64,000 nucleotides of DNA from an uncultured Bacteroidales bacterium (GCA_905233625.1 CAJOFJ010000004.1:76427-140426); one strand, 5' to 3'; positions 1,402-40,464 are shown, counted from the stretch's first letter. Notes: generated by a model not told the origin, from the sequence alone. Numbers and translations are program-made.

Positions 1402-1413
1402 AAACAAAATAAC

Positions 1414-3288: not shown

Positions 3289-3377
3289 ATTTCTGAAAAG
3301 TTCAGTCCGTTTTGTTGGGACACACGGTATTTGCAACAATATACACAAAAAAAGTGTAGAAAAATAATATCCTAAAA

Positions 3378-3399
3378 ATGTCAACAAAAATGTTGACAT
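3378..3399. promoter_or_regulatory. Perfect 9-bp inverted repeat ATGTCAACA-aaaa-TGTTGACAT, likely operator
   Basis: Read directly from the sequence. It sits over the -33 region, immediately upstream of the -7 box at 3408. Confidence 0.5.
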
Positions 3400-3407
3400 T
3401 TTTTTTG

Positions 3408-3415
3408 TATTTTTG
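3408..3415 (+). promoter_or_regulatory. Bacteroidota -7 promoter box (TATTTTTG)
   Basis: Matches the TAnnTTTG consensus. It lies 26 nt upstream of the TTG start at 3441. Confidence 0.55.
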
Positions 3416-3440
3416 CACAATCATTTATAGTAAAATTGTT

Positions 3441-10236: not shown

Positions 10237-11694
10237 TTGAAAGTCATGTCAAAGTTCGAGCCCAACATACTGCTTCAGTTAGCCGAAAAATATTACCACA
10301 CGCCCTGCGCCAAAATCGAGAAAATACCGCAATCAGGTTCGGTGCGCATATACTGCCGCCTGCTTTTTGACGGAAAACCCAGCCTGATGGGCGTATATAA
10401 CGAGGATGTGGCCGAAAACCACGCCTTCTTTGCCTATACCCGCTTTTTTGGCGAGCACAGAGTGAATGTACCTCAACTGCTGAGCATACACGACAATGAA
10501 CAGTATTACCTTTTGAGCGATTTGGGCGACGAAACCTTGTACTCTTTTTTACTGCAACATCGTGATGGACAAACCCTTGCACCCGAAGTTATCGAATATT
10601 ACCAAAAAGTCATCCGTCAACTGCCATTGATTCAGATGACCGGCAAACAAGGTCTGGATTTCTCCGTGGCCTATCCCCGCCACGCTTTCGACCGGCAGTC
10701 GATGCAATGGGACCTCAACTATTTCAAATACTACTTCGTCAAACTGGCCCGCATCACCTTCGACGAGCAGAAATTGGAGAATGACTTCCAGACACTGATG
10801 GACGAGCTGCTACAATGCGACAGTGACTTCTTCCTGTACAGAGATTTCCAGTCGCGCAACATCATGATTCATGACGGAGAGGTTTATTTCATTGATTATC
10901 AAGGAGGGAGAAAAGGCTCTTACTTTTACGACATCGCCTCTTTGCTTTTTGATGGCAAAGCCGACCTGCCTTTTGAACTGAGAGAATCCTTGTTGGATTT
11001 ATATCTTTCTGAATTGCAGAAACACATCACGGTTGACACCAGCGATTTCAGAAAACACTTTTACAGTTTTGTCCTGATCCGCATTATGCAGGCCATGGGA
11101 GCTTACGGTTATCGTGGTTATTTCGAAAAGAAAAGCCACTTCCTGCAGAGTATTCCCTACGCCATGACCAACATCAATTACCTGTTGACAGGCGACAAAC
11201 TGCCCGACAGCATTCCTTATCTGAAAAGCATCCTGCAACAACTCACACGGGTGGACTGGACCTTCATGACCGGAGGCAAAGCCCCGGCCAAAGACGATCA
11301 CCGCCTTCATGTGCTGGTGCAAAGCTTTTCTTTCAAGAAAGGCGTGCCGCAAGACCCCAGCGAAAATGGAGGAGGCTTTGTCTTCGACTGCCGCTGTCTG
11401 CCCAACCCGGGTCGCGAGCCGCAATACCGCAGTTTTTCGGGCAAAGATGCCTGTGTGAAAGAATATCTGGAACGCTATGAGGAAGTGGACCGCTTCAAAC
11501 AGCAGGTTCACAGTATCATCGACATGGCGGTGGACAATTATATTGAGCGAGGTTTCAACCACCTGATGGTCAGTTTTGGTTGCACAGGAGGCCAACACCG
11601 CTCGGCTTACTTTGCCGAATGCGCCGCAGCCCATCTCCGTGCCAAATACCCTGACGTGCTGGTGACTCTGCGACATAGGGACTGCCCGTGTTAA
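10237..11694 (+). CDS. Fusion protein: AmgK/APH-like sugar kinase domain plus RapZ C-terminal domain
   Basis: The N-terminal ~330 aa has an APH fold (GSVRIYCRL, LSDLGDETL, RDFQSRNIMI, IDYQGG). The C-terminal ~130 aa aligns by eye to E. coli RapZ residues ~160-280: SFSFKKGVP/SFGFKHGIP, VFDCRCLPNP/VFDVRFLPNP, FGCTGGQHRS/IGCTGGKHRS. Confidence 0.75.
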   Translation: MKVMSKFEPNILLQLAEKYYHTPCAKIEKIPQSGSVRIYCRLLFDGKPSLMGVYNEDVAENHAFFAYTRFFGEHRVNVPQLLSIHDNEQYYLLSDLGDETLYSFLLQHRDGQTLAPEVIEYYQKVIRQLPLIQMTGKQGLDFSVAYPRHAFDRQSMQWDLNYFKYYFVKLARITFDEQKLENDFQTLMDELLQCDSDFFLYRDFQSRNIMIHDGEVYFIDYQGGRKGSYFYDIASLLFDGKADLPFELRESLLDLYLSELQKHITVDTSDFRKHFYSFVLIRIMQAMGAYGYRGYFEKKSHFLQSIPYAMTNINYLLTGDKLPDSIPYLKSILQQLTRVDWTFMTGGKAPAKDDHRLHVLVQSFSFKKGVPQDPSENGGGFVFDCRCLPNPGREPQYRSFSGKDACVKEYLERYEEVDRFKQQVHSIIDMAVDNYIERGFNHLMVSFGCTGGQHRSAYFAECAAAHLRAKYPDVLVTLRHRDCPC

Positions 11695-18888: not shown

Positions 18889-18978
18889 AAGAATTAAGAG
18901 TTAAGAGTTAAAAGTTAAGAATTATAAGAAAAGCCCCATTCTTAATTCTTAGTTCTTAGTTCTTAGTTCTTAATTCTT
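18889..18978. repeat. Heptad-repeat inverted array forming a ~40-bp hairpin
   Basis: Hand-folded: 18889-18930 pairs with 18939-18978, with an 8-nt loop and a 2-nt bulge. The right arm includes the HIT gene stop codon (AAG AAT TAA). Confidence 0.8.
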
Positions 18979-19368
18979 AAACTCAGCGGCGATAGCGGCA
19001 GCTATACTTTTGAATTCCTCTTCGGTCAATTTCACACGTTCTTTTTTAAAATCCAAATCACCAACACTATTGATCGGCACAAGATGAATATGGGTATGCG
19101 GCACATCCAAGCCGATGACAGCCACTCCGATACGTTGGCATGGCATCGCTTTTTCCACAGCATGAGCCACTTTTTTGGCAAACACCATCATTTCGGCCAG
19201 GGTTTGGTCATCCAAATCAAAAATATAGTCATTCTGCACTTTCGGCACCACCAGTGTATGACCTTTTGCCAAGGGACTGATATCCAAAAAAGAGTAGAAT
19301 TTGTCGTTTTCCGCAATTTTATAGGAGGGAATCTCTCCTTTGATGATTTTTGTGAAAATTGTTTCCAT
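18970..19368 (-). CDS. HIT-family (histidine triad) nucleotide hydrolase
   Basis: HTHIHLVP histidine-triad motif; 132 aa. Confidence 0.9.
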   Translation of the reverse strand: METIFTKIIKGEIPSYKIAENDKFYSFLDISPLAKGHTLVVPKVQNDYIFDLDDQTLAEMMVFAKKVAHAVEKAMPCQRIGVAVIGLDVPHTHIHLVPINSVGDLDFKKERVKLTEEEFKSIAAAIAAEFKN

Positions 19369-19374
19369 AATCCT

Positions 19375-19848
19375 TTATCTTGTTACATCCATAATTTCAA
19401 GTTTGATGATGCCCACCGGAACTTTTACCTCCACAATTTCACCTTTCTGCTTACCAATCAATGCTTTAGCAATTGGAGAGGTAACCGAAATCTTACCTGA
19501 TTTCAGATCCGATTCTGATTCTGGCACCAAGGTATAGGCCATCACCATGTTATTCTGCAGGTTTTTCACCTGCACTTTCGAATAAATCAGAATTTTGGAC
19601 ACATCTATCTTTGATTCATCCAAAATACGGGCATTGGCCACCAAGTTTTTCAGTTTAGCAATTTTCAGTTCCAGCATACCCTGGGCCTCTTTAGCCGCGT
19701 CGTACTCTGCGTTTTCAGACAGGTCTCCCTTATCACGGGCTTCGGCGATAGCGGCAGAGATTTTGGGTCGTTCCACGCTTTCCAGCTGTTTCAGTTCCTC
19801 TTTAAGCTGTTCCAAGCTTTCTTTTGAATAATATTTAATCGTATCCAT
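19375..19848 (-). CDS. greA: Transcription elongation factor GreA
   Basis: Coiled-coil N-terminus (LKEELKQLE...RPKISAAIAEARDKGDLSENAEYDAAKE) and a C-terminal FKBP-like domain. The start is placed at the internal ATG 19848. Confidence 0.9.
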   Translation of the reverse strand: MDTIKYYSKESLEQLKEELKQLESVERPKISAAIAEARDKGDLSENAEYDAAKEAQGMLELKIAKLKNLVANARILDESKIDVSKILIYSKVQVKNLQNNMVMAYTLVPESESDLKSGKISVTSPIAKALIGKQKGEIVEVKVPVGIIKLEIMDVTR

Positions 19849-19872
19849 AATAAATTTATTGTATTCGTTATA

Positions 19873-19901
19873 CAAATAAAAGAGGCTTAACTAAAAGCCC
19901 C
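19873..19901 (-). terminator. Rho-independent terminator after the PorV-like gene
   Basis: On the minus strand, AGGGGCTT-TTAGT-AAGCCTCT is followed by TTTATTTG. Confidence 0.55.
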
Positions 19902-19934
19902 TTTTGTTATGCGTTAATATGTGTTGAGAAAGGA

Positions 19935-21146
19935 TTATAAAGCCAGCTTTAAGCTAACATAATGGTTTCCTTTCCATTTATTGGTAAATCTATATGCATA
20001 GTCAAGAATGAGTTTCTGGTTACCCTTTTCTTTTTTCACCAAAGGAATACCCACTGAGCAACCCAAAGAAGGACCAGCATAAATTGATTCGGGGTTCACG
20101 CTGGTGATAGCCGTGATCTTGTTCGGTTTGTCGGGATTGTTTCTCTCCACGCCAAAACTTTCCAGGCTATAGCCCACACGGACCATGAAATACTGTTTGA
20201 AAGCGTATTCCAGACCCAAGGTGAAGATGTCGCGTGAGTATGAGTTGGCGACAAAAGAACCTGCCAAAGTCAGACGATGGTCGGCATCGTTACGGGTAAG
20301 GCCCTCATCTTTTCTTTCTTCTTTGTCCATATCTTTATAAATACCACCGAAGAAAAGAAAATCATAAGAAATACCGAGTGCCAGCAAAGAAGGCATTTCA
20401 TATTCGGCGCTACGGGTCTCCAGAGAGATTTCGTGTTCCGTATCCGTAATGACTGCTCTTTGCAGAATACCGTCACCTTTATAGCTGATAGGAAGACCAA
20501 TATTCTTCAAAGTCACACCGATTTTGAAATTCTCGTATGGACCGGCCAAATATTGTACACCTGCATCGATAGCCACACCTGTAGCATTCAAGTCAGAAAC
20601 ACTCTCATTAACAATCTTCACGCTCACACCACCATGGATATACTGGTTGAAAGATTTAGCGTAATGAATGCCAATGTTCAAATATTTCGGAGAGAAATTA
20701 CCCATTTGGCCTTCCGGCTGATCAACCGTAGTAATAGGAATATCACCGAAGTTCATAATAAAGACGGAAACACCGAGCACACCATAATCTTTGATTTTTT
20801 TGCCGGTAGCTTTGTCTCTTTTGGCCAAAGACTGACCAATAGCGATAGAATTGATGTTGATGCCGCAATTGGAACCTGTCAGATACTGGGTTCTTGAGAA
20901 ACCCAGTTCTGTCTTGTTCACAAATGCTAAACCAGCGACATTGGAATATACAGATTCCATACCTCTGATTTCGGCAACACCTGCATTACCCCAACCGTTT
21001 GATCTTGCCCAAGGGTCGATTAACAAGCTGGATGCACCAGCCTGACCAGAACGGTCTCTGTTACCTGCGAATGATTGTCCCGCGTATGAAAGGAGACCAA
21101 CAACTGCGCAAATGATAAATGTTTTATATACTTTATTCATAGTCAT
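19935..21146 (-). CDS. PorV/PorQ-family outer-membrane beta-barrel (PorV paralogue-like)
   Basis: Signal peptide present. The N-terminal block GQAGASSLLIDPWARSNGWGNAGVAEIRGMESVYSNVAGLAF matches the family pattern G.AGA..L.I....R..G.G.A..A......NPAGLA. The sequence shows amphipathic beta-strand character throughout. Confidence 0.65.
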   Translation of the reverse strand: MTMNKVYKTFIICAVVGLLSYAGQSFAGNRDRSGQAGASSLLIDPWARSNGWGNAGVAEIRGMESVYSNVAGLAFVNKTELGFSRTQYLTGSNCGININSIAIGQSLAKRDKATGKKIKDYGVLGVSVFIMNFGDIPITTVDQPEGQMGNFSPKYLNIGIHYAKSFNQYIHGGVSVKIVNESVSDLNATGVAIDAGVQYLAGPYENFKIGVTLKNIGLPISYKGDGILQRAVITDTEHEISLETRSAEYEMPSLLALGISYDFLFFGGIYKDMDKEERKDEGLTRNDADHRLTLAGSFVANSYSRDIFTLGLEYAFKQYFMVRVGYSLESFGVERNNPDKPNKITAITSVNPESIYAGPSLGCSVGIPLVKKEKGNQKLILDYAYRFTNKWKGNHYVSLKLAL

Positions 21147-21174
21147 AATTTTTTATATTCTCAAGTAAACAGTT

Positions 21175-24100
21175 TTAGAATGCATTTAAGTCGGTTGGAC
21201 GCATAGCGCAGAAGAATCTCAGGGTTCTTTCACCCACATTAGGAGCTTTCACATGGATAATATATATACCACCTGCAACAGGAATTCCCGCATGGTTCTT
21301 CAAATCCCAATCAATATAAGTAGTTGCATCATCAGAAGCTTTTTTGCTCAATGTGCGGATCAGGACACCATTGGCGGTATAAATGGAGACTTCGCAAGGA
21401 GCCGGCAGATTCACAATCTTCACGTAAGTTTCGAGTGCGGTTGACTCATACTTGGAGAATCCGTAGTATGGGTTCGGCACAATATTGATATCTTGCAACA
21501 TCTCGTTATGGTATTCTTTGGTTTCGTTGATAACCGGAGCCAAGTCAACGGTTGAGAAAGTATACAAGGGGAAGCCTGCATTTTCCATCGGACCGTTATT
21601 GGTTTCATATTCTAATCTCTGGTCATCGCTATACCAACGGGATTTGTATCTCATGTAAGGACGGGACACACGGATTTTCACAGTTGCGTCATTACCGGGC
21701 TGCAACCAATAATTCTCATATTCTGGCATAGGCATAGGTATGCTGGCCCACATCACGTTATTGAACACCTGCATCTTCAGAGCTTTTCTCAAAGGACGGT
21801 CCAGAACTGTATCTGATGTGAAAGACGAGAACTTGGCTGCCAGCCATTCACCTTCATCGTATGGACCGCAATCAAAGAAATTATAGGTATGAGAGCCGTC
21901 CGGACTAAGAACCGGCATGTCACTGATGTCATCACGAATTGATCCACCATGGTTATATTGAACATAGCTTGCTCCATTCATACTACCAGCACCGGAAATA
22001 AACTGGTCATTGTTATTGTAGTTACGTTTTGCATTTTGATCCTCATATTGAATAGGAGCCGTTGAACCGGCGCTGCCACAAATATAGAGGTAATGTCTTC
22101 CGCCGAAAGAAGGCTCTGGCACTTCACAAATAGCGTGAACATCATCAACGCCACCATGATCGAGCCTATTGTATGTTTCGTACAATTCAATGTATTCACT
22201 CTCCGACAAATTAGTTACTTCACCAGTTTCAGGATTGGTAATATATGCATAAACATTGGTAGGATTAAAGATCATGTCATTTCCGTTATTTAGAGTATCC
22301 AGTGAATTTTCGGAGAACATGATATTCAATCTTTCACCCGTTTCAATATTGATAGCATAACCCGGGAACCAACCAAAACCTCTCGTATTGGTATTATCAC
22401 GGTTACCATCTTTATCCACTGACCATGCTTTTTTGGGTTCATGACGAATATTGTCACCATATTCAGTAGGGACTAAACCGCTTTCTGTTGAGCCGGCCTC
22501 CAAAACAAGACAACGTGTCCACAGGCTCTTATCCGAAGTAAAGACCACGTCAACAGAATAGAGATTTGTCATCGTCATATTATGGCCCATAGCCCATTTA
22601 TTATGGTTGGTCGAAGAATGCTGATCAGCGGATTCACCAGAGTCATAGTGCGGATAATAGCCATCAGTATAAACCAAAGGTTTAAGTAACTCGTTAAAAT
22701 CATAATAACGCGGTGTCGGATAACCTGCAGCAGCAGCATAGTAAACAGTATCCGGAACAATGAAACAAGCTTTCACACCACCAGAATAAGGCGAAGTAAT
22801 CACATAAGGAGACCACAAACCATATACTAATGTCTCAAACTGTGCCGTTGGATCCTTAAATGCTCTCATACACTGTGTGATAAACGGAGAACCATCACCA
22901 TTGGGTGGATAAATTTCGCAAGCATCTTCAGTTCTCCATTTCATATATTCATCTTCAGCACCATCCTGAGACGACCATTGCTCCCAGTTTCCTTGGGCCT
23001 GGGTACCTGAACGGATCCAGTTGCTTGGGTATTCACCAGCTCTGTCTCTCAAACCGTATAACCATGTGCTTGACTGATTTTGGTATGACATGGAAGACCC
23101 CAAATAAGTTACCTGACCTGCCATCAACATACCACCCGTAGATACGGTACCACCGCCAGCCTGTCGTAACCAACGCAACTGGCTCTCGTCTTGGATTTCA
23201 AATGGTTTGTTATTAATAGACACCGACAAGCCCAATTCCATGAACAGCTGGTCTGTAGCCACATCAATACTGAAATTAGAAGTATCGGTAGGTTTGGTAA
23301 TATTAAATTCATCTTTCAGGTAAGTATACATTTCTTCTTGTGAAGAGAAGTTTACTCCCTCAACACCTGTAATACTCAACGCCCATTTTGTCTTGCCGTT
23401 CACCTCTTCACCATTTTGGATGAATCTGATTTCGTATGTCAACGGTTTCACCTGCAAAGGATCGATTACTTTGATATCCAATGGACCATAATTACTCTTG
23501 TAAGTAACATTACCGGCAGTGTAATCACCGTTATTACCTCTCAAAATTCTTTCTTTGCTAGCATCATCAATTTCAAGAACAAAACCACCATTACCTTGAC
23601 CCTGAACTCTTGTAATCTTAGGTTGTGTTCCGAATGCACACAATTTGGTCACATCAACACCTGTCGCTTTCGGGCTATGTGGTACAGCCGAATAAACCTT
23701 AATATTTCTACGACCTGCCAGATACGGAGTTTTTTGACCTTTCAAACCATTAGTTATCTGTTCATCAATAGAGAACGGTGCATATTCGTTGTAAGCATAC
23801 GCGATTACCATAAAGTAATAGGTCTTATGGTTCACCAAGGTTGTATTGGTACCTGTAGCAAACTTATCTTCTGTAACTCTGAAAGTTCTCTGGATACCTG
23901 AGTTGGCGCCATTCACCTTCTCTACAGCCACATTGGTATTCAACGACTGGTCAAACTCCCAGTTAATCAACTGTCCAATAGGAGTACCATCTTCCCGGTA
24001 ATTTTTGATATCGCACTGAGCAATCAAACGAACCTTATCCATGTTTCCGATATCAGAAACACTCACATCCTTACCAGAAACCTGATAAATCTGATAACCC

Positions 24101-26220
24101 TCAAAATAATATTTGTTGCTACCTTCGGGATATGACAGAGTCATAGATGTATCTACAGTTGCAGTATGAGAATGTCCAAGTGAATCCACATAATCAAAGG
24201 TATACATTATTGAGTCAATGTCATAAGTAGTACTAATCTGAGGATCAACTTCAGCATAAGACTCATCCTTATTGTTAGAATCATCTCTATCATTAGTTAA
24301 ATAGATAATCAGCTCATTTTCATATTCTTTGATTGTTACATCAGGAGCATCAGGACCATCCAACACTTTGAAGCAGTTTTCGAACAAAGACTGGCATTTG
24401 TCATCAGCGACTTTCAACAATTCAACTGACTGCCATGCGCCACCTGAGAAAGAACGTGCCCAAGGAATACCCACGGTAATATAGTTCACTGCACCACGAC
24501 GGAGGGTGAAAGGACCAGCAGACTGCATGAAACGTCTGTCGCCCGGTTGGTTACCGGAAACAGTCTCTTCAATCCAACCACGACCAGTATTTCCATCATA
24601 AACAGGGTCAATATTACTGAATATAGCACGCTGTGCCGGGTCTTTGATACCCCAGTTACACAAGTCAGTGACTCCTGGGAACATGAAGTCGCACTGAGGT
24701 CCGACCACACCACCCAAGTCGGGGTGTGCTACAGAACCGTATGTCATCCACTGGCCATCATGCCAACGACCTTCCAACATTTTATAATATTCATCTGCTG
24801 TTCTCGGGTCACGACGAGGGCTGTTGTCATTGTTATGGAACACGAAACGTCTCATACCAAAACGTTCGTTATTGGCGATACTATCACCAAAGTTCACACC
24901 ATTGATAGCGAACTGGTCGTTGGGATAGTTGCTACTCAAAAATTGATCACAATACACCCTATTGGCTTGACCCGGCACACCTGCCTGAGTATTATCAAAA
25001 TGAGGATTATCACGTCCTACTTGCTCGCCTGTCGAGTCATCCACCATATAGTCGGCATCGATATACGGACCTTGGAAGAAGTCCACACCCACTGCAGGAG
25101 GATTGGAACCATAGTGCTGAACAAGACCCGTACCGTCGGTAGCGGAACCGTTATAGCAATAACCCAAACCACGGGCCACATCGCAACCCACATAGTCATC
25201 TTCAGCAAAACCCAAATCAGGGTCAACCCACTGGGAGAAGAACGTGCGGTTCAAGTTCGTGGTTGAACGGTTGATGATTTCGTATGAATAAAAAGTCATG
25301 TTGTTCAAATCATCGTTGGTCTGGAAAGCGAAAGCCTGGGCACGGATTTCCAAACCGATAGGAGCACCACCGGTTTCCGTATGTGCATTACCCTTATCGT
25401 TGAATATCCAGAACAATGTCTCGTCGCCTTTCAGCACGTGGTCGGCATAAACCATACCATCAATACCGATTGAATTGGCGTATGTAGGATATTCGGCCAC
25501 CAATTCCTGTTCGTAAGGAATAGGCAGCAAACCATGAGCAGCTCTTGATTTGTTGGCTTCGGTCCATGGACACAAGTCATTGTCGATATCATAGTACGGA
25601 TAGTCACCATTTTCGGGATCATATTCATAGTTGTTATTTACATCCTTAAACGGAGCCAGGTAAAACGACTGTTTTTTATTGTCATAATCACCATGTGCAG
25701 GCCAGTTTCTGATAGCCAGAGACGGGTTGGGGACAGTATGATTGTGCGTGTTCCAAGTACTGATATGTGCGTCCACTTCCGCACGGGTCATTTTAAACAT
25801 TTTATCCCAAGCTGCACATTCTTCCTGGGCAATTTCAGCCAGACCATCCACAGACAGAGGTCCGGTCCAGAAGTCATCACCAACCTGACGGAAACGGACA
25901 GCAGCCAGTTTCAGCTGGTTGTTATCGTCGTATCCACCAATCCACAATGCGGCGGCAAACATTGAGCTCTTACTGGAACCTTTGGGTACCTCATATTCCG
26001 CGATATCTTTATTCCACATGGTACCATTGGTCTCAATATAAGCACGTACATTATTGATAGTCAACTCATTGGAGTTTGTCGCCGACAAACACTTAGCAGA
26101 TCCTGCCTTTGCCTTGGCTTTCTTTTTCGGATCTCCAACCCATCTTTCCGCCTGGACAGTTCCAATCGCAGACAGAAGCACAAGGGCAATTAAAAATAAA
26201 CTTTTAACTATATTCTTCAT
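21175..26220 (-). CDS. Giant (1681 aa) secreted protein with T9SS C-terminal sorting domain, function unknown
   Basis: Signal peptide MKNIVKSLFLIALVLLSAIGTVQA. The last ~95 aa (IVPNPYYGFSKYE...VSIYTANGVLIRTL...WDLKNHAGIPVAGGIYIIHVKAP...) fit the Por-secretion-tail / FlgD-Ig-like CTD pattern. No catalytic motif is recognised. Confidence 0.7.
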   Translation of the reverse strand: MKNIVKSLFLIALVLLSAIGTVQAERWVGDPKKKAKAKAGSAKCLSATNSNELTINNVRAYIETNGTMWNKDIAEYEVPKGSSKSSMFAAALWIGGYDDNNQLKLAAVRFRQVGDDFWTGPLSVDGLAEIAQEECAAWDKMFKMTRAEVDAHISTWNTHNHTVPNPSLAIRNWPAHGDYDNKKQSFYLAPFKDVNNNYEYDPENGDYPYYDIDNDLCPWTEANKSRAAHGLLPIPYEQELVAEYPTYANSIGIDGMVYADHVLKGDETLFWIFNDKGNAHTETGGAPIGLEIRAQAFAFQTNDDLNNMTFYSYEIINRSTTNLNRTFFSQWVDPDLGFAEDDYVGCDVARGLGYCYNGSATDGTGLVQHYGSNPPAVGVDFFQGPYIDADYMVDDSTGEQVGRDNPHFDNTQAGVPGQANRVYCDQFLSSNYPNDQFAINGVNFGDSIANNERFGMRRFVFHNNDNSPRRDPRTADEYYKMLEGRWHDGQWMTYGSVAHPDLGGVVGPQCDFMFPGVTDLCNWGIKDPAQRAIFSNIDPVYDGNTGRGWIEETVSGNQPGDRRFMQSAGPFTLRRGAVNYITVGIPWARSFSGGAWQSVELLKVADDKCQSLFENCFKVLDGPDAPDVTIKEYENELIIYLTNDRDDSNNKDESYAEVDPQISTTYDIDSIMYTFDYVDSLGHSHTATVDTSMTLSYPEGSNKYYFEGYQIYQVSGKDVSVSDIGNMDKVRLIAQCDIKNYREDGTPIGQLINWEFDQSLNTNVAVEKVNGANSGIQRTFRVTEDKFATGTNTTLVNHKTYYFMVIAYAYNEYAPFSIDEQITNGLKGQKTPYLAGRRNIKVYSAVPHSPKATGVDVTKLCAFGTQPKITRVQGQGNGGFVLEIDDASKERILRGNNGDYTAGNVTYKSNYGPLDIKVIDPLQVKPLTYEIRFIQNGEEVNGKTKWALSITGVEGVNFSSQEEMYTYLKDEFNITKPTDTSNFSIDVATDQLFMELGLSVSINNKPFEIQDESQLRWLRQAGGGTVSTGGMLMAGQVTYLGSSMSYQNQSSTWLYGLRDRAGEYPSNWIRSGTQAQGNWEQWSSQDGAEDEYMKWRTEDACEIYPPNGDGSPFITQCMRAFKDPTAQFETLVYGLWSPYVITSPYSGGVKACFIVPDTVYYAAAAGYPTPRYYDFNELLKPLVYTDGYYPHYDSGESADQHSSTNHNKWAMGHNMTMTNLYSVDVVFTSDKSLWTRCLVLEAGSTESGLVPTEYGDNIRHEPKKAWSVDKDGNRDNTNTRGFGWFPGYAINIETGERLNIMFSENSLDTLNNGNDMIFNPTNVYAYITNPETGEVTNLSESEYIELYETYNRLDHGGVDDVHAICEVPEPSFGGRHYLYICGSAGSTAPIQYEDQNAKRNYNNNDQFISGAGSMNGASYVQYNHGGSIRDDISDMPVLSPDGSHTYNFFDCGPYDEGEWLAAKFSSFTSDTVLDRPLRKALKMQVFNNVMWASIPMPMPEYENYWLQPGNDATVKIRVSRPYMRYKSRWYSDDQRLEYETNNGPMENAGFPLYTFSTVDLAPVINETKEYHNEMLQDINIVPNPYYGFSKYESTALETYVKIVNLPAPCEVSIYTANGVLIRTLSKKASDDATTYIDWDLKNHAGIPVAGGIYIIHVKAPNVGERTLRFFCAMRPTDLNAF

Positions 26221-26261
26221 GATTATCTGTTTTTATTATTATCAAACTGTTAGAATAAAGC

Positions 26262-29200
26262 TTAGAATCCAAATTGAATACCCAGACTTACACGTGTAGG
26301 ACGGCTGTAATTATATGGACTGCGTATCATCATATTATAGTAGTTAATGAATGAACTACGGTCAGTTTGAGACTCAACAATTGACTGATAAGCTGCTGCT
26401 GACAAGAAACCATCATCATCGGCGTTTCCGGTATAGTCATAAACTGCGATAATATTCTTGAAGTTGAACAAGTTCTGAACATCCAGGTAAACAGTCAGAT
26501 AACCAGGTTTCACACCTTTGGGATTACCATCTTTATCCTTGGCATTCTTGCCATAGAGATTCAAGATAAAAGTCTTGTCGACACGAAGGTCGCACTGGAA
26601 AATCCAAGGTCTATGAGAGCCTTGGAGCGTACCTGCCAAACGTCTGCTTCCTGCCACTCCGAGAGCGGAGTAAGGAACACTTGAACGGCTATAAGGCATA
26701 CCTGAAGCGGCTGAGAAGAGCAGGGTGATACCAGCATTTTCGAACCACTTGATTTCCTTGACTGTGTTGGTGCCTTTCTTAACTTTTCTAGTAACAGGAC
26801 CATTATAATCCACACCACTGTCAAAACGATAATCGATGGTGACACCAATTCTATGGCGCTGGTCGAATTCCAAATTCACCAAGGTTCTCAGGTTCGGCTG
26901 ACCAGACTGGATGATAGCCTTGTTGGATGTTTCATCTGAACCAGTACCTTTAGCGAACTGCAAGGTATAGTTGGCATGGAAAGAAATGTTTTTGAATCTT
27001 CTCAATTCATAACTCAGTGTGAAGCCCTGAACGGTACCAAAGTCCATGTTCTTGTAAGAAGAATAGGAAGAGGGATATGCACCCACGTAACGATAATACT
27101 GGATCATGTCACGTTTTTCCGAATAGTAGGCTGCAAGACTGATAGCCGATTTCTCACCAATTTTCTGACGGAAACCGATTTCATAATCCACACTTCGCTG
27201 AGGTTTCAATGCGGGATTAGACACAGCACTGTAACCCATATCCTCAATAAACATATAACTGATAGGGTTCACATTCAGAGCAGTAGGACGAGTAGTCACA
27301 ATATTATAGTGTGCATAGAACAAAGAGTTGTCGGATACCGGGAAGGAGAAGGAGATACGGGGCATTACTGACCAGTGAGGTGCGTAGCTGCCGAATGCAT
27401 CTGCTTCTACCTTGGTGATATCTTTTTCATCCAATTTATTCTTCAAGATAGGACCTGAGGTATTCAGTGAAAGTTCTGTTTCAGGGTCAGTCACCAAGTC
27501 ACCCTGGGCATTATACCAATTGTCGCCATCACGATAACCGATCACCGCAACGTCAAAGTTCTCAGGGTTCAGGTTTTCGTTGTAATAATGTTTCTGGCTG
27601 ACATATACGTACCAATTGTCATTAGCGCCTTCGAGCAGGGTTTCCTTGCCAAAGTTCAACGCTTTCAATTCCTTAACGGTATAAGCATCACGGAACAAAT
27701 AGGGATCTTTCAGCACATCCTGATTGGCATCGAAATAGTCCACACGAACACCCACACTGAAAAGCAAGCTGTTGATAGAGAATTTATCCTGCAAGTAGAA
27801 AGCCATATAGGTAGGACGGTATGCTCCGATTTCGTATGATCTTTTACCATCTTTCTTGGTAAAGAAATCTTTGATGGAAGCACTACCTCTGTATTTATTT
27901 CCCAATGCATCGTAACCCATGTAACCGACAGGACCTCCCTGGCCAGTACCCACTACTAATTCTTCCGTGGAGAACAGTGACAAACCGCCCATTTCCATAT
28001 ACTGTGAAGGAGTGATATCATCCACATCCACCCACTCTCTCAAGCCAAGGCCCAACTGTTTACGGATATTCTCGGCAAAACTTCCAGTTTCCACATCACC
28101 CAATGCACGGTCGAACCACACATAAATATCTCCATTATAACCGTGGAAATCAATACCGTGTTCATTGATAAAATTCTGTCTTTGTTCCGCATTATACCAT
28201 GAAGGCATCTGTGCGTCTAAGTATACCGGATGGGTCAAGTCGAGCTCACTGTTGTGCAAATTCGCCTTATCTCTCATCAAAGACCAAAGTCCGAAAGGAT
28301 TAACGGAATAGCTGCGATATATCATCTGTTCAAACTCAAAACCAAATTTCAACTCATGATTGGTCAAGTTCATAGAGACACTGGCTTTCATGCCCACCAC
28401 ATCTCTCTGCGTTTTCTCATAACCCGTCACAGGAATACTGGGAGCATTATAGAAACCATAGGGGCCTGATCCTCTTTGACCATTCAGAAGTGCACCGAAA
28501 CGCGCATACATAGTTTTATCATACGGCAACGTTTCATCCATCACAGAGTTAAAAAAGCTGGGAGTGAACTGATCGTAGAAGTTCTGGGTATAAAACACCA
28601 GACCAGGGTTGAGATTACCCGCCTCAAAGGTAAGGAGGGTATCCAGACGGTTAATCATCTTATATATATTACCATTACTATTGGTAACATAATAGGTGAT
28701 ACCAGTTTCCGGATCTGTATAATATTCTTCCGGAACGAGATCATACGTTTCAGCAAAATGAGACTTGAAACGACCGATATAACCATAATTGAACAAATTG
28801 CCCTTATGAATAGCATCCTGGGAAAGGCTATTACTGCGGGTATAGTTGATATTGATATCATACATCACGTTTTTCAGGATACCATTACCCGTTGTATCGG
28901 TATAAACCCTGTGGTTCAAACGGGCACTCACACGGGCGGTATTGGAAATTCCCTCACCATTATTCTGGGCATTGAACAACGAATTGCCAATAGACCAACT
29001 TCTACCCTTGTAATATTCGTATGAACCGTTGAAAGAAAGACGGATATTATTGGTTTTGCCCATGAGGAACTCGATTTTACCCTGAGCCAGATAATTCCAA
29101 TAACCGGCATTGTCACGTACTCTTTGTTTCACAAAAGCGTCAGAGCCCAAGTATTCGGCTTCGGTTTTATATACGCCGAGAGTACCTTGGGGATAGCGGA

Positions 29201-30128
29201 TAGGAGCCTCTGAAATGCCAAGGATTGTTTCGGGGGTAGCACGCCAGGTACCTGCTTTATTTGAACTACCTTTACCGGCGGGAGCTCCATCCTTAACATA
29301 TTCAACCTCGCCACTGATCAAAAAACCGATACGGGCGGGGTCATCTCTTTTCTTTCCTTTCAAAATAGGACCTGTCAAGGAGACAGCACCCAAGAAATTG
29401 TTATATCCTTCGAGAGATCCGCGCAACTCGGCAGAACCATGGAAGTCCTTGGAAGCCGGTTTCGTGGTAATCACGGTAAAGCTCGTACCATCACCCAATT
29501 CAGCGGGGATACCACCCTGAATCAGCTGGGCTTCTTCCACACTACTCATGGCCACACTCGCATTATTACCTCTCATTCTCACACCATCCACAATCACCTG
29601 CTGACCATCGGAACGGTTACCACGAACAGCGGTCATACTACCATCAACACTGGATACACCTTCCAAGTTGGACAGAGCTGCGGTAATTGAACGGCCAGGG
29701 GTTTTACGGACTGCATCACCGCTCAAACGGGTGGTTGATGAAGTGTTATCTGCATCGAACACAGGTGGTTCCCAAACAACTTCCACAACATCCAAGTCAG
29801 TGGCGCAGTTAATTTTGAAATCCACGAACTGAACTTGGTCGGTTTTAACCACAAGACCTGTCTTTTTCATGGTTTTCTTACACGTCATTTCAGCGTTCGC
29901 CTCAATGTCGTAGGTGCCTGGCTGGATACCAAACAACTGATACTCTCCTTTTGCGTCAGACATCGCATAGTTAACCACCTTGTCCTCTATTTTCAAATAG
30001 ACGTTGGTGTACGCTAATGGCTCTCCGGTCTGGTCCGTAATTATTCCCTTAATGGTACCATTTTGGGAATAAGCGAAGCCGGAAAAAAGGATGATCACTC
30101 CGAGTGTAAAGAGTAATTTTTTCATCAT
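26262..30128 (-). CDS. Oversized (1288 aa) TonB-dependent-receptor-like outer-membrane protein with carboxypeptidase-regulatory-like N-domain
   Basis: Signal peptide, then a CarboxypepD_reg-like beta-sandwich (GTIKGIITDQTGEPLAYTNVYL...GEYQLFGIQPGTYDI). The plug block is VRKTPGRSITAALSNLEGVSS...VRGNRSDGQQVIVDGVRM. The C-terminus ends in an aromatic residue (GIQFGF). Confidence 0.75.
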   Translation of the reverse strand: MMKKLLFTLGVIILFSGFAYSQNGTIKGIITDQTGEPLAYTNVYLKIEDKVVNYAMSDAKGEYQLFGIQPGTYDIEANAEMTCKKTMKKTGLVVKTDQVQFVDFKINCATDLDVVEVVWEPPVFDADNTSSTTRLSGDAVRKTPGRSITAALSNLEGVSSVDGSMTAVRGNRSDGQQVIVDGVRMRGNNASVAMSSVEEAQLIQGGIPAELGDGTSFTVITTKPASKDFHGSAELRGSLEGYNNFLGAVSLTGPILKGKKRDDPARIGFLISGEVEYVKDGAPAGKGSSNKAGTWRATPETILGISEAPIRYPQGTLGVYKTEAEYLGSDAFVKQRVRDNAGYWNYLAQGKIEFLMGKTNNIRLSFNGSYEYYKGRSWSIGNSLFNAQNNGEGISNTARVSARLNHRVYTDTTGNGILKNVMYDININYTRSNSLSQDAIHKGNLFNYGYIGRFKSHFAETYDLVPEEYYTDPETGITYYVTNSNGNIYKMINRLDTLLTFEAGNLNPGLVFYTQNFYDQFTPSFFNSVMDETLPYDKTMYARFGALLNGQRGSGPYGFYNAPSIPVTGYEKTQRDVVGMKASVSMNLTNHELKFGFEFEQMIYRSYSVNPFGLWSLMRDKANLHNSELDLTHPVYLDAQMPSWYNAEQRQNFINEHGIDFHGYNGDIYVWFDRALGDVETGSFAENIRKQLGLGLREWVDVDDITPSQYMEMGGLSLFSTEELVVGTGQGGPVGYMGYDALGNKYRGSASIKDFFTKKDGKRSYEIGAYRPTYMAFYLQDKFSINSLLFSVGVRVDYFDANQDVLKDPYLFRDAYTVKELKALNFGKETLLEGANDNWYVYVSQKHYYNENLNPENFDVAVIGYRDGDNWYNAQGDLVTDPETELSLNTSGPILKNKLDEKDITKVEADAFGSYAPHWSVMPRISFSFPVSDNSLFYAHYNIVTTRPTALNVNPISYMFIEDMGYSAVSNPALKPQRSVDYEIGFRQKIGEKSAISLAAYYSEKRDMIQYYRYVGAYPSSYSSYKNMDFGTVQGFTLSYELRRFKNISFHANYTLQFAKGTGSDETSNKAIIQSGQPNLRTLVNLEFDQRHRIGVTIDYRFDSGVDYNGPVTRKVKKGTNTVKEIKWFENAGITLLFSAASGMPYSRSSVPYSALGVAGSRRLAGTLQGSHRPWIFQCDLRVDKTFILNLYGKNAKDKDGNPKGVKPGYLTVYLDVQNLFNFKNIIAVYDYTGNADDDGFLSAAAYQSIVESQTDRSSFINYYNMMIRSPYNYSRPTRVSLGIQFGF

Positions 30129-30710: not shown

Positions 30711-30737
30711 AAAAAAAAGCCGGACTTTCATCCGGCT
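30711..30737 (-). terminator. Rho-independent terminator of tRNA-Lys
   Basis: On the minus strand, AGCCGGA-TGAAAG-TCCGGCT is followed by T8. Confidence 0.7.
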
Positions 30738-30742
30738 CTGTG

Positions 30743-30815
30743 TGTTCCAGCTGGGATTCGAACCCAGGACCCCATCCTTAAAAGGGATGTGCTCTACCTG
30801 CTGAGCTACTGAAAC
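30743..30815 (-). tRNA. tRNA-Lys (anticodon TTT)
   Basis: The reverse complement folds as a cloverleaf. The acceptor stem is GTTTCAG/CTGGAAC, the anticodon arm is CATCC-CTTTTAA-GGATG, and the T-arm is GGGTTCGAATCCC. Confidence 0.9.
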
Positions 30816-31946: not shown

Positions 31947-32645
31947 TCAGTTATTAATAAATGGGTTATTTTGTCTTTCGTAGCCTATAGTCGTTGTCAT
32001 TTCATGCCCGCAAAAAACGGTGGTTTCATCGGGAAGCGTCAGCAGTTTTTCCCGAATACTTTGCATAAGCACCGGAGACGAACCAGTGGGTAAATCGGTA
32101 CGCCCCACACTGCCGGCAAACAACACATCTCCCACAAACACCATCTTATGTTTTTCATCGTATAAACAGATGCTGCCGTCGGCATGACCAGGAGTATAAA
32201 ACACCTGCAAACTTTGCGTTCCAAATGTCAATATATCACCCTCTTGCAAAAATTTGGACGGTTCCGGACAGGGTTCTATCTCCATCCCTAACACCGCACA
32301 ATAACTATGCGTTTGATGATATAGTTCCAAAGCTTTCTCGTGAATATATATAGGCGTATCCAAGTGCTTGAGACACCATGAATTTCCTATCACATGATCG
32401 ATATGGGGATGTGTATTGACGACATACTGAACAGCAAGATTCTCCTTCACAATATAATTTTGCAACTGTTCATTTTCATCAGCATAATAGTTTCCCGGGT
32501 CAACAATGATTGCCTCACCGGTATCATCATGCAGCACATAAGTGTTGACCTGAAAAGGATTGAAATGGAATGTTTTGACTGTCATCTCTTCAATTGTATA
32601 ATGTTGAAAAGCAATAAGTTCCTTCAAGCTAACCTTTCGTTTCAT
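31947..32645 (-). CDS. MBL-fold metallo-hydrolase (glyoxalase II-like)
   Basis: HPHIDH (HxHxDH) motif, with later TPGH and GD..F blocks. The true start may be the internal MTVKTF. Confidence 0.8.
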
Positions 32646-32648
32646 ACC

Positions 32649-33971
32649 CTAAAACGGCTTATTGACCTTGGGATCCATCATGTCGGACACCACCTTCACC
32701 TTTCTACCCTTGTCGAACACCACTTTATACACCAGCTTACCGTTGGGGTCCCAGCTCATCCATGCACCCTGCTTCACACGATTTTTAAAACTGCCTGTGA
32801 AATGTTTTTGTCCATTAGGATAAAACTCCGTAAACTTACCCTCTGGGGCATCAGCGACAAAACTTTGCTCACGCACCTTGATTCCGCGCTCATTATAGAA
32901 CACCCAAGTACCTTCACGCTGATCGTTCTTATAATTACCACTTTCCAGAATAATACCATTGTCGGCGTACTCTTTCCACGCTCCATGTTTCATATTATTG
33001 CGATAATTACCATCAGATTTGATCTTGCCATTCTCGCTCCAATACTTGTACACCCCGTTTCTTTCATTCTGTTGATACAGAATATGATACTTTTGTATGC
33101 CGCTGTCATAAAAGCCTTCCCAAACACCGGTCATCAGCCCGTTCTGGAAAGCGCCCTTATCTTGGATTTTTCCATTGGAATAATATGATTCCCACAGTCC
33201 GTCTTCCTTGTCATCCACAAAATTCCCCTGGCGTTGTAACTGACCGTCTTCGTACCATGCCTTAGTCTGTCCCTGACGTTTATCCTCCTTATAATTCACT
33301 ATTTTCCATAGTTTTCCATTCTCAAAGTAATACTTCCATTCACCATCCTGCATACCTTTCACAAAATTGCCGGTGCTGCCCAGGGACCCGTCCTGATGAT
33401 AGAATTTCCATTCCCCTTCTTGCAAGTCATCGATGGTATTGCCTTCCATATCTTTTTGTCCTGACGCAGACCACCACTGGGTATAACCGTTCAGCTTGCC
33501 GTTTTCGTAAACACCCTCAAACTTTTTCTCCCCATTGTCATAAAACTCTGTCACCTTACCCTGGGCATTGCCCTCCACATAATTCACCTGTTTAAAGAGC
33601 ATGCCATTTGGGTATTTGAAAGTCCATTGTCCGGACCGTAATCCTTGCGCCATCTGGCCTTCCGACTCTATGGCACCAGATGAGTACCAGCTTTTGAAAG
33701 GACCGTTTTCCGCCTCATACTCGCTACTTTTCTTGCCGTTGTCGAACCATTCTTTCCAAACGCCCACTTTCCGACCATTTTCATAACGGCCTTCCATCCA
33801 TTTGGCTCCGTTTTTATGGTAAAACACCCACAGCCCCGTCTCCCTGCCATCTTTCTGCAGGCCAATCGACATCAGTTTCTTGTTGGGCCAATAAGATTTC
33901 AGTGTATCCTGAGCCGACACCATGGTCAAGCATAAAAAAGACAAGAAGAGGAGGATTATCTTTTTCATCAT
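32649..33971 (-). CDS. MORN-variant / YwqK-type repeat protein, secreted
   Basis: Signal peptide, then roughly 17 tandem ~23-aa repeats of the form G.W..YY.NGK....G.Y.NG...G.W. Confidence 0.75.
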   Translation of the reverse strand: MMKKIILLFLSFLCLTMVSAQDTLKSYWPNKKLMSIGLQKDGRETGLWVFYHKNGAKWMEGRYENGRKVGVWKEWFDNGKKSSEYEAENGPFKSWYSSGAIESEGQMAQGLRSGQWTFKYPNGMLFKQVNYVEGNAQGKVTEFYDNGEKKFEGVYENGKLNGYTQWWSASGQKDMEGNTIDDLQEGEWKFYHQDGSLGSTGNFVKGMQDGEWKYYFENGKLWKIVNYKEDKRQGQTKAWYEDGQLQRQGNFVDDKEDGLWESYYSNGKIQDKGAFQNGLMTGVWEGFYDSGIQKYHILYQQNERNGVYKYWSENGKIKSDGNYRNNMKHGAWKEYADNGIILESGNYKNDQREGTWVFYNERGIKVREQSFVADAPEGKFTEFYPNGQKHFTGSFKNRVKQGAWMSWDPNGKLVYKVVFDKGRKVKVVSDMMDPKVNKPF

Positions 33972-38136: not shown

Positions 38137-40464
38137 ATGAAAAGAATATTCACCAGCATTTTTATTATATGTTGCATAGTAGAAATTTATGCCCAGCCCA
38201 TTACCACTATCGGGGTAAATGGCATGACGCCTGATGCCTTCATCAATACCACCTTTGCCGGAGAGGGAGTGGAGCTGCACAACTGCAAATTCAACTGGAG
38301 TTCAGGAACCATCAACGGCTCCCAGATAGGTAAATTCACCAATACCAATCCTAATTTCCCCTTTTCATCGGGCATACTGCTAACTACGGGAAATATCAGT
38401 GTGGCTGAAGGACCTAATAACGCTGACGGTGAAAGCGATGCCACAGGGGTCAATCATGCAAACATTGACAACGACTTACAAGCAACCATACCCAACTATA
38501 CTCTCAGCAATGCTTCTGTCATTGAATTCAATTTTTACAGTGGCAGAAATGAAAACAGTAATACAGTATCTTTCAACTACATCTTCGGTTCGGAAGAATA
38601 TCCTGAATATGTATGTTCAGACTACAATGACGTTTTCGCATTCTTTTTGACAGGACCGAACCCTTATACCTGCCAAGGGGCAAATGAAACCCGAAATATA
38701 GCAATTATTCCGGGCAGTGGAAATCTTCCCGTAGCCATTAATACTCTTAATTCCGGATCTCCCGGCAGTGGTTACAGTGCCTCTGACTGTACTTCACTCG
38801 GCTTTAGCCAGTATTATTATAACAACAATTCCAACGCCGTACAATATGATGCATACACCGCTTACTATAACACCACGGCCGGCAGATATGTCGGCCTGAC
38901 TGCCGAATCACAGTTATGTCCTTGCAGCGAATATAAAATGAAAATTTCAATTTCCAATGTCGGTGACAATGCCTTTGATTCTGGTGTATTTTTGGAACAA
39001 GGTAGTTTTAAAGTACCTAAACTACTTACCGTTGTTGAAAATGTCACCAATCAAATGGATTCCATAGTCAAAGGATGTAGTCAAGCTGATATACAAATAC
39101 ACTATGGTGAACCTATGGAGCCTTCCATGAGAATTCAGATAAACACCATTGGAGGCACCGCAAACCAAGAGGATTTCAATTTCATACATATCCATCCTGA
39201 CTCCACAACTGACACATTGCATAACGGCGATTTTGTTATATTTCCTGAAGGAGACACTGTGGTAAACTTCAAATTAGAGGTTTCTGAATCCGCTCATTTT
39301 CCAGGTCAGACAAAAACTGTCCAAATTGTTTTCAAAAGTATTATTTGCTCCGCATTCAAATACCTGAATGGCACTATAGAAGAAAGAGCCCAATACGATA
39401 CTGTCAAATATATACTGATTGATAACGACCGTTTCACTTTAACCGACGACAGCGTGTTTTACTGTAATCAATGTAACCATGTAGCCATTCAGATGGAGGG
39501 TGGTACGGAACCCCTCATATACAATTGGACTCCTGCAACAGGTTTGGCCACACCTCACGCAAGAGAGAGCAACTGCAATATTACCGAGAACACCACCTTC
39601 CAGGTAATAGTAAGCGACCGCTGGGGCTGTCTGGTGGACACTTGCTACCATACCGCTCTTGTCACCAGCACTCCCGTGTTAGAAGGACATTACCATATCT
39701 CACCTAACGTGATTTGTGTACCGGAAGATGTGCAATTCAAATCTACCGCCACACCCGCTTCCATCCACCGTTGGATTATTTACTCCAATGATATGAGAGA
39801 TACCATTTACGGCAATAACCAGACCTACTCTTTTACCGAACCTGGTCATTATTCCATTGAATATAAGGCATACGAAGCAGAGGAGTGTGCAGCGGAAGTG
39901 TCCCTGATTAATTACATTAACGCAGGCATACAGCCCACAGCGTCTTTTTTCTTTGACCCGGCCGAAGCGGAAGTGGGACAAATGGTGATGTTCACCAATG
40001 AATCTACTGGCATGAACGTCCACTATAACTGGAGTTTTGGTGACGGCACTAACAGTACGGAAGAAAATCCCACTCATGTATACAACTCGGAAAACAGTGA
40101 AAACTACAATGTCATCCTCACCGTAGCCGATGATGCAGGATGTCAGGACATGTTCTCCCTGCCAGTCCCCGTGGTGGATAATCACGTACTGTATGTCCCC
40201 AATACCTTTACCCCCAACAAGGATGGTATCAATGACATATTTCTGCCCGTGATAGCTTCAGTGGCAAAGTATTACATTGTTATTTATGACCGCAATGGCA
40301 GTATTGTCTTCCAGACCGACAACCCCGAAATAGGATGGACCGGCACATTCCCCAACGGTCAACTTTGTCCATCAGGGGTATATACCTACTATATAAATTA
40401 CGTCCGTTACAATAATCTGAAACAAGAACTCATCAAAACGGGAAATATCAACCTCTTCCGATAA
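38137..40464 (+). CDS. T9SS type-B cargo: choice-of-anchor-L domain + PKD domain + gliding-motility C-terminal domain
   Basis: The N-terminal domain has FNYIFGSEEYPEYVCSDYNDVFAFFL. The PKD block is WSFGDGTNSTEENPTHVY. The C-terminus is YVPNTFTPNKDGINDIF...IYDRNGSIVF...GWTG...GVYTYYI. Confidence 0.8.
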   Translation: MKRIFTSIFIICCIVEIYAQPITTIGVNGMTPDAFINTTFAGEGVELHNCKFNWSSGTINGSQIGKFTNTNPNFPFSSGILLTTGNISVAEGPNNADGESDATGVNHANIDNDLQATIPNYTLSNASVIEFNFYSGRNENSNTVSFNYIFGSEEYPEYVCSDYNDVFAFFLTGPNPYTCQGANETRNIAIIPGSGNLPVAINTLNSGSPGSGYSASDCTSLGFSQYYYNNNSNAVQYDAYTAYYNTTAGRYVGLTAESQLCPCSEYKMKISISNVGDNAFDSGVFLEQGSFKVPKLLTVVENVTNQMDSIVKGCSQADIQIHYGEPMEPSMRIQINTIGGTANQEDFNFIHIHPDSTTDTLHNGDFVIFPEGDTVVNFKLEVSESAHFPGQTKTVQIVFKSIICSAFKYLNGTIEERAQYDTVKYILIDNDRFTLTDDSVFYCNQCNHVAIQMEGGTEPLIYNWTPATGLATPHARESNCNITENTTFQVIVSDRWGCLVDTCYHTALVTSTPVLEGHYHISPNVICVPEDVQFKSTATPASIHRWIIYSNDMRDTIYGNNQTYSFTEPGHYSIEYKAYEAEECAAEVSLINYINAGIQPTASFFFDPAEAEVGQMVMFTNESTGMNVHYNWSFGDGTNSTEENPTHVYNSENSENYNVILTVADDAGCQDMFSLPVPVVDNHVLYVPNTFTPNKDGINDIFLPVIASVAKYYIVIYDRNGSIVFQTDNPEIGWTGTFPNGQLCPSGVYTYYINYVRYNNLKQELIKTGNINLFR

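Follow-up and report, generated by a model that had tools for sequence, protein, structure and literature searches.

A giant protein with a type IX sorting domain and its syntenic outer-membrane neighbours in Bacteroidota: a candidate surface-capture module

A 64,000-nucleotide stretch of DNA from an uncultured Bacteroidales bacterium (GCA_905233625.1, CAJOFJ010000004.1:76427-140426), analysed here in full and referred to as the window, carries three genes that run in one direction on the minus strand and encode proteins of 1288, 1681 and 403 amino acids (aa). They specify a TonB-dependent transporter-like outer-membrane protein, a giant secreted protein that ends in a C-terminal domain (CTD) of the kind that a type IX secretion system (T9SS) uses, and an outer-membrane barrel of the PorV/PorQ family. 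The interpretation that we favour, with a confidence somewhat short of even, is that these genes belong to a conserved four-gene outer-membrane module of Bacteroidota, in which the giant protein, delivered by the T9SS and docked by its CTD, would serve the transporter as a capture cap. Each part is of a known kind; the combination, and the body of the giant protein, are undescribed. No description of the module or of the giant family was found in the literature that we searched, which covered PorV-like paralogues, the T9SS together with TonB-dependent transporters, PorQ/PorZ neighbourhoods, and LytTR. The giant family has thousands of members in Bacteroidota of gut, rumen, freshwater, sediment and soil, and is without Pfam coverage, structural relative or publication in that literature.

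Gene order and correlated divergence

Do three adjacent genes make a unit? An earlier, sequence-only reading of the window had described three co-directional genes separated by gaps of 41 and 28 nt, and the open reading frames (ORFs) lie exactly where it had placed them. They are real rather than chance ORFs, because each is so long and each has thousands of homologues. Gene order was scored by tblastn among 79 related genomic loci that we fetched. Transporter, giant protein, PorV-like barrel and GreA follow one another in the same order and on the same strand in 74 of the 79, down to giant proteins of about 35% identity, and in the related loci that we read the intergenic gaps are similarly short to those of the window. 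The five exceptions comprise one 4.4-kb contig, one locus in which the transporter alone is missing, and three solitary paralogues. The same order, with a HIT-family gene next, recurs in cultured Chitinophagaceae and in a metagenome-assembled genome (MAG) labelled KSB1. These loci answer the objection, raised with the sequence-only reading, that the three families might not co-occur in other genomes.

The three proteins also diverge together. Their pairwise distances correlate with one another at r 0.90–0.93, compared with 0.76–0.77 against GreA; partial correlations among the three, given GreA, are 0.75–0.82, and the lengths of giant protein and transporter co-vary (Spearman 0.56). We treat these trends as suggestive only, because phylogeny was corrected just by a short proxy, GreA.

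Could the genes be neighbours and nothing else? On this view the three would be outer-membrane genes of separate function whose adjacency comes from inherited synteny or from being transcribed together; PorU would cleave the CTD of the giant protein, a T9SS cargo like any other, which would then be released or anchored to anionic lipopolysaccharide (A-LPS), and barrel and transporter would work independently. GreA and HIT are equally syntenic without an obvious functional link, so that gene order, however conserved, shows little by itself; the giant gene also occurs in solitary copies (L061, L075, L079 and L087), and the correlated divergence could partly reflect shared phylogeny. On the other hand, the gaps are short, order and strand are kept over deep divergence, the three proteins correlate better with one another than with GreA, and the CTD is better conserved than the body of the giant protein, which would be unexpected of a signal that is discarded. 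We consider such an accidental neighbourhood improbable.

Two observations concern this synteny and the extra copies. The pair greA and HIT directly follows the module in the window and in L003, L085, L086 and L088, an unusually deep conservation. Extra giant copies were seen in L013, L025 (14081..18286), L061, L075, L079 and L087 (8001..12038), and all paralogues inspected keep the same CTD; the second copy of L025 is 72% identical to the first and lies after greA, and the solitary copy of L061 shares its MAG with the complete module of L048.

At its upstream end, the trio is preceded by a gene for a 136-aa single-pass membrane protein. Whether this protein belongs to the module had been left open by the sequence-only reading; judged by its homologues, it is a conserved fourth member in most lineages. 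Of 72 loci, 66 have a short ORF no more than 350 nt upstream of the transporter gene, and in 48 of the 72 a homologous small ORF, about 110 nt upstream, encodes a transmembrane (TM) helix, a linker and a C-terminal FDLRKAVIYSEILNRPY motif (consensus F-D-L-R-K-A-V-I-Y-S-E-I-L-N-R-P-Y). In the window the protein ends in ...EELKKAVIYGEILKNPYN and matches its neighbour in L003 at a BLASTP E of 1e-7. Its TM helix sits at the extreme N-terminus behind an acidic tip, with a Lys-rich stretch past the helix and then an acidic low-complexity linker. Following the positive-inside rule, the protein would adopt an N-out/C-in topology, with its bulk facing the cytoplasm. Translation likely starts at 30647 rather than at the ATG at 30731, because the latter overlaps the terminator of a tRNA-Lys gene. 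The small protein has no Pfam match and is not present in the two Chitinophagaceae loci.

The transcription unit likely runs from this small ORF through the transporter and giant genes to the barrel gene, since a terminator-like hairpin follows the barrel gene and the tRNA-Lys upstream carries a terminator of its own (Table 1). By its match to the consensus, the former hairpin likely marks the 3' end of the unit.

The giant protein, its C-terminal domain and the adjoining barrel

By sequence, the N-terminus of the giant protein reads as a Sec signal peptide, MKNIVKSLFLIALVLLSAIGTVQA. The earlier statement that a T9SS-type CTD is the sole recognisable part of the protein was borne out: outside the CTD, the body has no sequence match in Pfam, NCBIfam or the PDB. 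A full-length Pfam scan gave a single weak match, to FlgD_ig at residues 1610–1659, and for 14 diverse members of the family, searched in Pfam at E values up to 1, CTD models alone were matched.

How widespread is this family? A full-length search recovers more than 6600 homologues, and an exhaustive search with the first 1200 residues yields 6763 clusters at 50% identity, of which 1829 have E < 1e-30. In the databases they are called 'hypothetical' or 'T9SS type A sorting domain-containing', the latter name having been given to several by NCBI. Homologues come from Bacteroidales, Lentimicrobiaceae, Chitinophagaceae, MAGs labelled Sphingobacteriales or Flavobacteriales, and one KSB1-labelled MAG; the occurrence seen is thus in Bacteroidota plus this single MAG. 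Cultured carriers include the Chitinophagaceae Polluticoccus soli and Taibaiella soli, which makes the question of function experimentally tractable. Two contigs with the module, L012 and L057, were deposited as MAGs of an 'Oscillospiraceae bacterium' (Firmicutes). These names look like binning or labelling errors, because L012, in gene content as in identity values, is all but the same as L003, a locus of Bacteroidales type.

We modelled the giant protein with AlphaFold2 from a 40-sequence alignment in two overlapping parts, residues 1–1000 (pLDDT 73.5, pTM 0.68) and 860–1681 (pLDDT 76, pTM 0.77). The pTM values indicate that the predicted protein is compact, beta-rich and multi-domain, a globular cap rather than a fibre. 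Foldseek of residues 1–1000 against the PDB returned no match at E < 1e-3. Below that level there were weak, low-TM beta-sandwich matches to glycoside hydrolases and phosphorylases, the best being 9ju0 (E 3e-3, TM 0.12–0.15); we set them aside as functional evidence. The sole match in a viral structure library was a generic Fn3-rich phage protein. Conservation in the family is highest in residues 281–360, 561–640 and 1281–1320, and the alignment contains conserved Arg-rich blocks, MRRF and DRRF. A possible Cys-His protease dyad, C346/H1376, was dropped, as no caspase-like fold or motif accompanies it.

The CTD is more telling. When the last 105 aa were scanned alone against NCBIfam, the best matches were to the CTD portions of PorZ (5.7e-7) and then PorU (1.3e-4). 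Of the PorZ model NF052228, positions 686–743 alone match (28 bits, with a cut-off of 260); in the PorU model NF033707, the alignment covers positions 1018–1077 only. Foldseek of residues 860–1681 likewise reached known structures via the CTD only, namely PorZ (5m11, E 8e-6, 131 columns, 24% identity) and, more weakly, PorU (6za2, E 0.029), FlgD, the Ig-like domain of Kgp and the translocon-bound CTD of NucA (8glk_D, TM 0.69, target-normalised). PF18962 is matched weakly in 3 of the 14 diverse homologues. Both sequence and predicted fold thus identify the domain as a probable T9SS beta-sandwich that comes nearest to the CTDs which PorZ and PorU retain. That the organism uses a T9SS is indicated by a 775-aa protein elsewhere in the window (38137..40464, plus strand), which combines a choice-of-anchor L domain with a T9SS type B sorting domain (TIGR04131, 50 bits, cut-off 35).

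Is this CTD a disposable signal or a lasting part of the protein? Mean pairwise divergence is 0.42 for the CTD, 0.50 for the giant body, 0.54 for the transporter and 0.50 for the PorV-like barrel. Block-wise conservation within the CTD is 0.60–0.69, and its last residue, a nearly invariant Phe, is conserved at 0.96. CTD distances follow the PorV-like barrel's more closely than any others (r 0.84). A domain that is discarded after export would not be expected to be more conserved than the body, and the CTD looks like a permanent part of the giant protein. There are precedents: the CTDs of PorU and PorZ are uncleaved and remain on PorV and PorQ (PMC10202324), and type B cargo is tethered by neighbouring PorP-like barrels (PMC9143113). 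By analogy, we infer that the CTD may keep the giant protein docked on the barrel of the neighbouring gene.

The sequence-only reading had assigned the 403-aa barrel to the PorV/PorQ family at large rather than to the housekeeping PorV, and profile scores agree. The barrel passes the family model NF033709 (117.2 bits, cut-off 90) and fails the three equivalogs, PorV NF033710 (59 bits, cut-off 250), PorQ NF033711 (62 bits, cut-off 220) and PorV2 NF052325 (32 bits, cut-off 325). By these models it belongs to a distinct subfamily that is none of PorV, PorQ and PorV2. A profile built from four orthologues matched Flavobacterium johnsoniae PorV (6h3i_F, E 3.8e-9) and, weakly, the FadL-type proteins TbuX/TodX. 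Searches of the PDB with single protein sequences were uninformative; with profiles of this kind, only the CirA plug, the N-terminal extension (NTE) of a SusC homologue and F. johnsoniae PorV were recovered. A dedicated PorV-like anchor for the giant protein is plausible, because its CTD, the least diverged part, is similar both in sequence and in fold to those that PorZ and PorU retain. A BamG-like role was also entertained for the barrel and rejected, as the PDB profile search gave no match to BamG.

Might we then be looking at an ordinary porU-porV locus? As there, a PorV-family barrel comes after a large CTD protein, and the CTD aligns to the C-terminus of the PorU model. However, Pfam finds no C25 peptidase domain (PF01364) anywhere in the giant protein or in the 14 diverse family members, nothing outside the CTD matches PorU, the structural match to PorU is weak, and the barrel scores far below the PorV equivalog cut-off. 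Because the C25 domain is lacking throughout, this identification is essentially refuted.

A proposed capture cap for the transporter, and the competing interpretations

The 1288-aa protein has the layout of a Bacteroidota transporter: signal peptide, NTE, TonB-box-like motif, plug, and beta-barrel with a terminal Phe. The carboxypeptidase-regulatory-like, plug and barrel domains read from the sequence earlier all score above their Pfam cut-offs (Table 1). Against the PDB, a profile from four orthologues matched the plug of CirA (E 3e-13) and the NTE of the SusC homologue 9hfj_A (E 1.6e-5). A block L-x-x-V-E-V-V-D-Y-K-V-P-L-I is conserved at the junction of NTE and plug (as displayed for 30 of about 70 aligned orthologues). 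From this position, and from a resemblance to the TonB box of SusC-type transporters, LDVVEVVWEPPVF is a putative TonB box. Orthologues have a median length of 1243 aa, and 68 of 70 end in Phe. In the window's protein the Pfam plug match leaves about 1070 residues behind it. Its description as oversized is a modest claim, since it is only some 15–20% longer than typical SusC-like transporters. The NCBIfam scan gave no SusC/RagA or other equivalog match for the transporter, and no SusD-like gene was found among the neighbours of the module in the window and the related loci examined. An LptD-like role for this barrel, an idea that came from the nearby lptF/G and from rsmA/pdxA in Chitinophagaceae, was abandoned in view of the protein's plug and TonB-receptor barrel. 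In L085 and L086 (Chitinophagaceae) the module adjoins, on its upstream side, rsmA, a 2-hydroxyacid dehydrogenase gene and pdxA; we treat the likeness to the lptD-surA-pdxA-rsmA neighbourhood of Proteobacteria as coincidence.

What could these proteins do together? The most economical mechanism would be capture or processing of a ligand at the surface, followed by TonB-driven import. The CTD of the giant protein would remain uncleaved and stay on the PorV/PorQ-family barrel encoded immediately downstream, as PorZ does on PorQ and PorU on PorV, and this docking would hold the compact, approximately 180-kDa protein at the cell surface. The upstream gene would supply the TonB-dependent transporter, with its SusC-like layout of NTE, putative TonB box, plug and barrel. 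In contact with it, the giant protein would form a ligand-capturing or ligand-processing cap, taking the part of SusD and other surface lipoproteins in SusCD, and the substrate so captured or processed would be taken up inward. The small protein of the inner membrane, with its C-terminal FDLRKAVIYSEILNRPY motif, would be the fourth component, possibly a regulatory one.

Import fits with the regulators found beside some relatives, because a ligand-type sensor lies upstream of the module in about a quarter of the loci. The sequence-only reading had reported no sigma/anti-sigma pair nearby. That the module has no regulator holds for the window; the wider comparison changes the picture, since in 20 related loci a pair that the window does not have, a sensor kinase with a LytTR response regulator, stands directly upstream and on the same strand. 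The kinase has 11 Reg_prop repeats (a propeller), a Y_Y_Y domain and a LytS-type His_kinase domain. This arrangement suggests ligand-induced expression of the module. The pair occupies about positions 1–4000 in each locus that carries it, and is listed for L014, L017, L021–L023, L025, L027, L028, L030, L037, L038, L046, L051, L055, L056, L060, L064, L073, L081, L084 and L088. A solitary giant paralogue also adjoins kinase/LytTR regulators of this kind.

Must the transporter work inward? The Oar transporter of Myxococcus is reportedly a TonB-dependent barrel that works outward, and an N-terminal CarboxypepD_reg domain joined to a TonB-dependent barrel without a SusD partner is the Oar-like architecture. 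By that model, the barrel would export or release, for instance, a product of the giant protein or a surface polymer. The NTE is, however, also standard in importing SusC-like transporters, as the match to 9hfj illustrates, and the giant protein already has an export route in the T9SS. Outward transport therefore seems to us very doubtful.

Several findings weigh against a capture cap that feeds an importer. The module is usually single-copy and lies among housekeeping genes, its synteny with greA and HIT being kept across orders; in these respects it resembles a locus for a core envelope function more than one for nutrients. It encodes no enzymes. No ligand-binding or catalytic fold was detected in the giant body by Foldseek or by Pfam searches of the 14 members, and the window and six related loci gave no riboswitch or other RNA or substrate clue. 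The CTD scores 19.7 bits against TIGR04183, below the cut-off of 23. Extra giant genes exist without a transporter or barrel gene of their own, and the correlated divergence and length co-variation carry the limit of the GreA proxy given above.

Since the module is usually single-copy, housekeeping in setting and syntenic across orders, with neither enzymes nor a substrate clue, a core role in the envelope or as a T9SS accessory has to be taken as a serious rival, even though we judge it unlikely. The module would then be an attachment-type or accessory device of the T9SS, or one for biogenesis or maintenance of the surface or outer membrane; the giant protein would be permanently docked like PorZ on PorQ, and the TonB barrel would give energy or a conduit. 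In its favour, CTD and barrel are akin to the pairs PorZ-PorQ and PorU-PorV, the giant protein retains 35–50% identity over 1300–1700 aa across orders, the module is fixed beside greA and HIT from Bacteroidales to Chitinophagaceae, and in Bacteroidales loci LptF/G is close by. More speculatively, the Arg-rich blocks MRRF and DRRF could bind an anionic polymer. Against this role, nothing outside the CTD is similar to T9SS components, the T9SS model organisms are not among the matches seen, a ligand-type sensor kinase in front of about a quarter of the loci fits inducible uptake better, and the combination of plug and TonB box is typical of importers.

If the capture-cap interpretation is followed to its end, a further and more tentative proposal can be made, which we hold as possible rather than probable: a new class of machine, in which a TonB-energised transporter is capped by a T9SS-delivered, CTD-docked protein of 150–190 kDa with a new fold, served by a dedicated PorQ/PorV-like barrel and a small inner-membrane partner. 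T9SS and TonB would thereby be coupled physically and functionally, possibly in a core device. Should the four proteins form one complex, the T9SS would build the surface-exposed part of a TonB-dependent transporter, and anchoring by a retained CTD on a PorV-like barrel would extend beyond the T9SS attachment complex.

Related systems and neighbouring features

The closest parallels are the PorZ-PorQ and PorU-PorV pairs of Porphyromonas gingivalis, in which a type-A cargo with retained CTD is held at the surface by a PorV/PorQ-family barrel (PMC10202324). The CTD of the module is closest to those of PorZ and PorU in sequence and fold, and its barrel gene adjoins the cargo gene as porV adjoins porU. 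Unlike PorZ, with its beta-propellers, or PorU, a C25 peptidase, the giant body shares nothing detectable with either; the module's barrel fails the PorV, PorQ and PorV2 equivalog cut-offs, and a TonB-dependent transporter and a small membrane protein are added.

SusCD systems share with the module a transporter of NTE-plug-barrel layout, in the module with a putative TonB box, and a large, adjacently encoded surface protein that could cap it, and polysaccharide utilisation loci share the Reg_prop/Y_Y_Y sensor that stands upstream of some module loci. In contrast to SusCD, the module has no SusD lipoprotein and no SusC/RagA signature match, its putative cap is a T9SS cargo of 150–190 kDa and not a lipoprotein, and it is usually single-copy in a housekeeping context without enzymes.

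PG1035-PorP-PorE and SprB-SprF resemble the module in that T9SS cargo is tethered non-covalently to a dedicated beta-barrel that is often encoded next to it (PMC9143113). They differ in the sorting domain, which in the module is type-A-like (TIGR04183/PorZ type) and not type B, and in the barrel, which is of the PorV/PorQ and not the PorP family. The BAM complex of Bacteroidota includes BamG-BamH, where the extracellular loops of a 14-strand FadL/PorV-like barrel hold a surface-exposed partner (PMC12578637). The module differs in that its barrel has no sequence relation to BamG that the PDB profile search detected, and in that the partner is a T9SS cargo rather than a lipoprotein.

Table 1. 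Features of the module and its immediate surroundings in the window
Feature	Position	Strand	Basis or remark
HIT-family gene	18970..19368		next after greA
greA	19375..19875		first gene past the PorV-like gene, behind the terminator-like hairpin
Terminator-like hairpin between PorV-like gene and greA	19878..19905	minus	11-pair stem followed by T-rich tail; consensus match only
PorV/PorQ-family outer-membrane barrel, 403 aa	19935..21146	minus	NF033709
Giant secreted protein, 1681 aa	21175..26220	minus	signal peptide, beta-rich body (predicted), T9SS-type CTD
T9SS-type CTD, probable beta-sandwich, about residues 1575-1681, tail RPxDLxxF	21178..21498	minus	NCBIfam, Foldseek
TonB-dependent transporter-like outer-membrane protein, 1288 aa	26262..30128	minus	Pfam, profile matches
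TonB_dep_Rec_b-barrel part, residues 719-1123	26760..27974	minus	PF00593, 40.7 bits, cut-off 27
Plug, residues 127-215	29484..29750	minus	PF07715, 26.0 bits, cut-off 23.9
TonB-box-like motif LDVVEVVWEPPVF, residues 112-124, between NTE and plug	29757..29795	minus	position and resemblance
NTE / CarboxypepD_reg domain, residues 25-103	29820..30056	minus	PF13620, 44.1 bits, cut-off 32.3
Small single-pass membrane protein, 136 aa	30237..30647	minus	translation from Met at 30647
tRNA-Lys (UUU)	30742..30815	minus	own strong terminator hairpin; tRNA and hairpin span 30716..30815

Downstream of the trio, the window encodes GreA, HIT, a transketolase subunit and LptF/G; upstream lie the small ORF, the tRNA-Lys and GTP cyclohydrolase I. 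In keeping with the earlier remark that no SusD-like lipoprotein, sigma/anti-sigma pair or enzyme accompanies the trio, none adjoins it among the neighbouring genes checked in the window.

Further out, ARAGORN called a 'tRNA-???' with a two-base anticodon at 32063..32150 (minus strand), inside an ORF of the metallo-beta-lactamase fold (31947..32645); without confirmation from Rfam, it is probably a false positive. Two genes upstream of the tRNA-Lys, a 440-aa MORN-repeat protein (32649..33971, minus strand) weakly matches the LIC20035 adhesin family. A 485-aa ORF at 10237..11694 (plus strand) joins an AmgK-like kinase N-terminal part to a RapZ-like C-terminal part, an unusual fusion in which both matches lie below the NCBIfam cut-offs.

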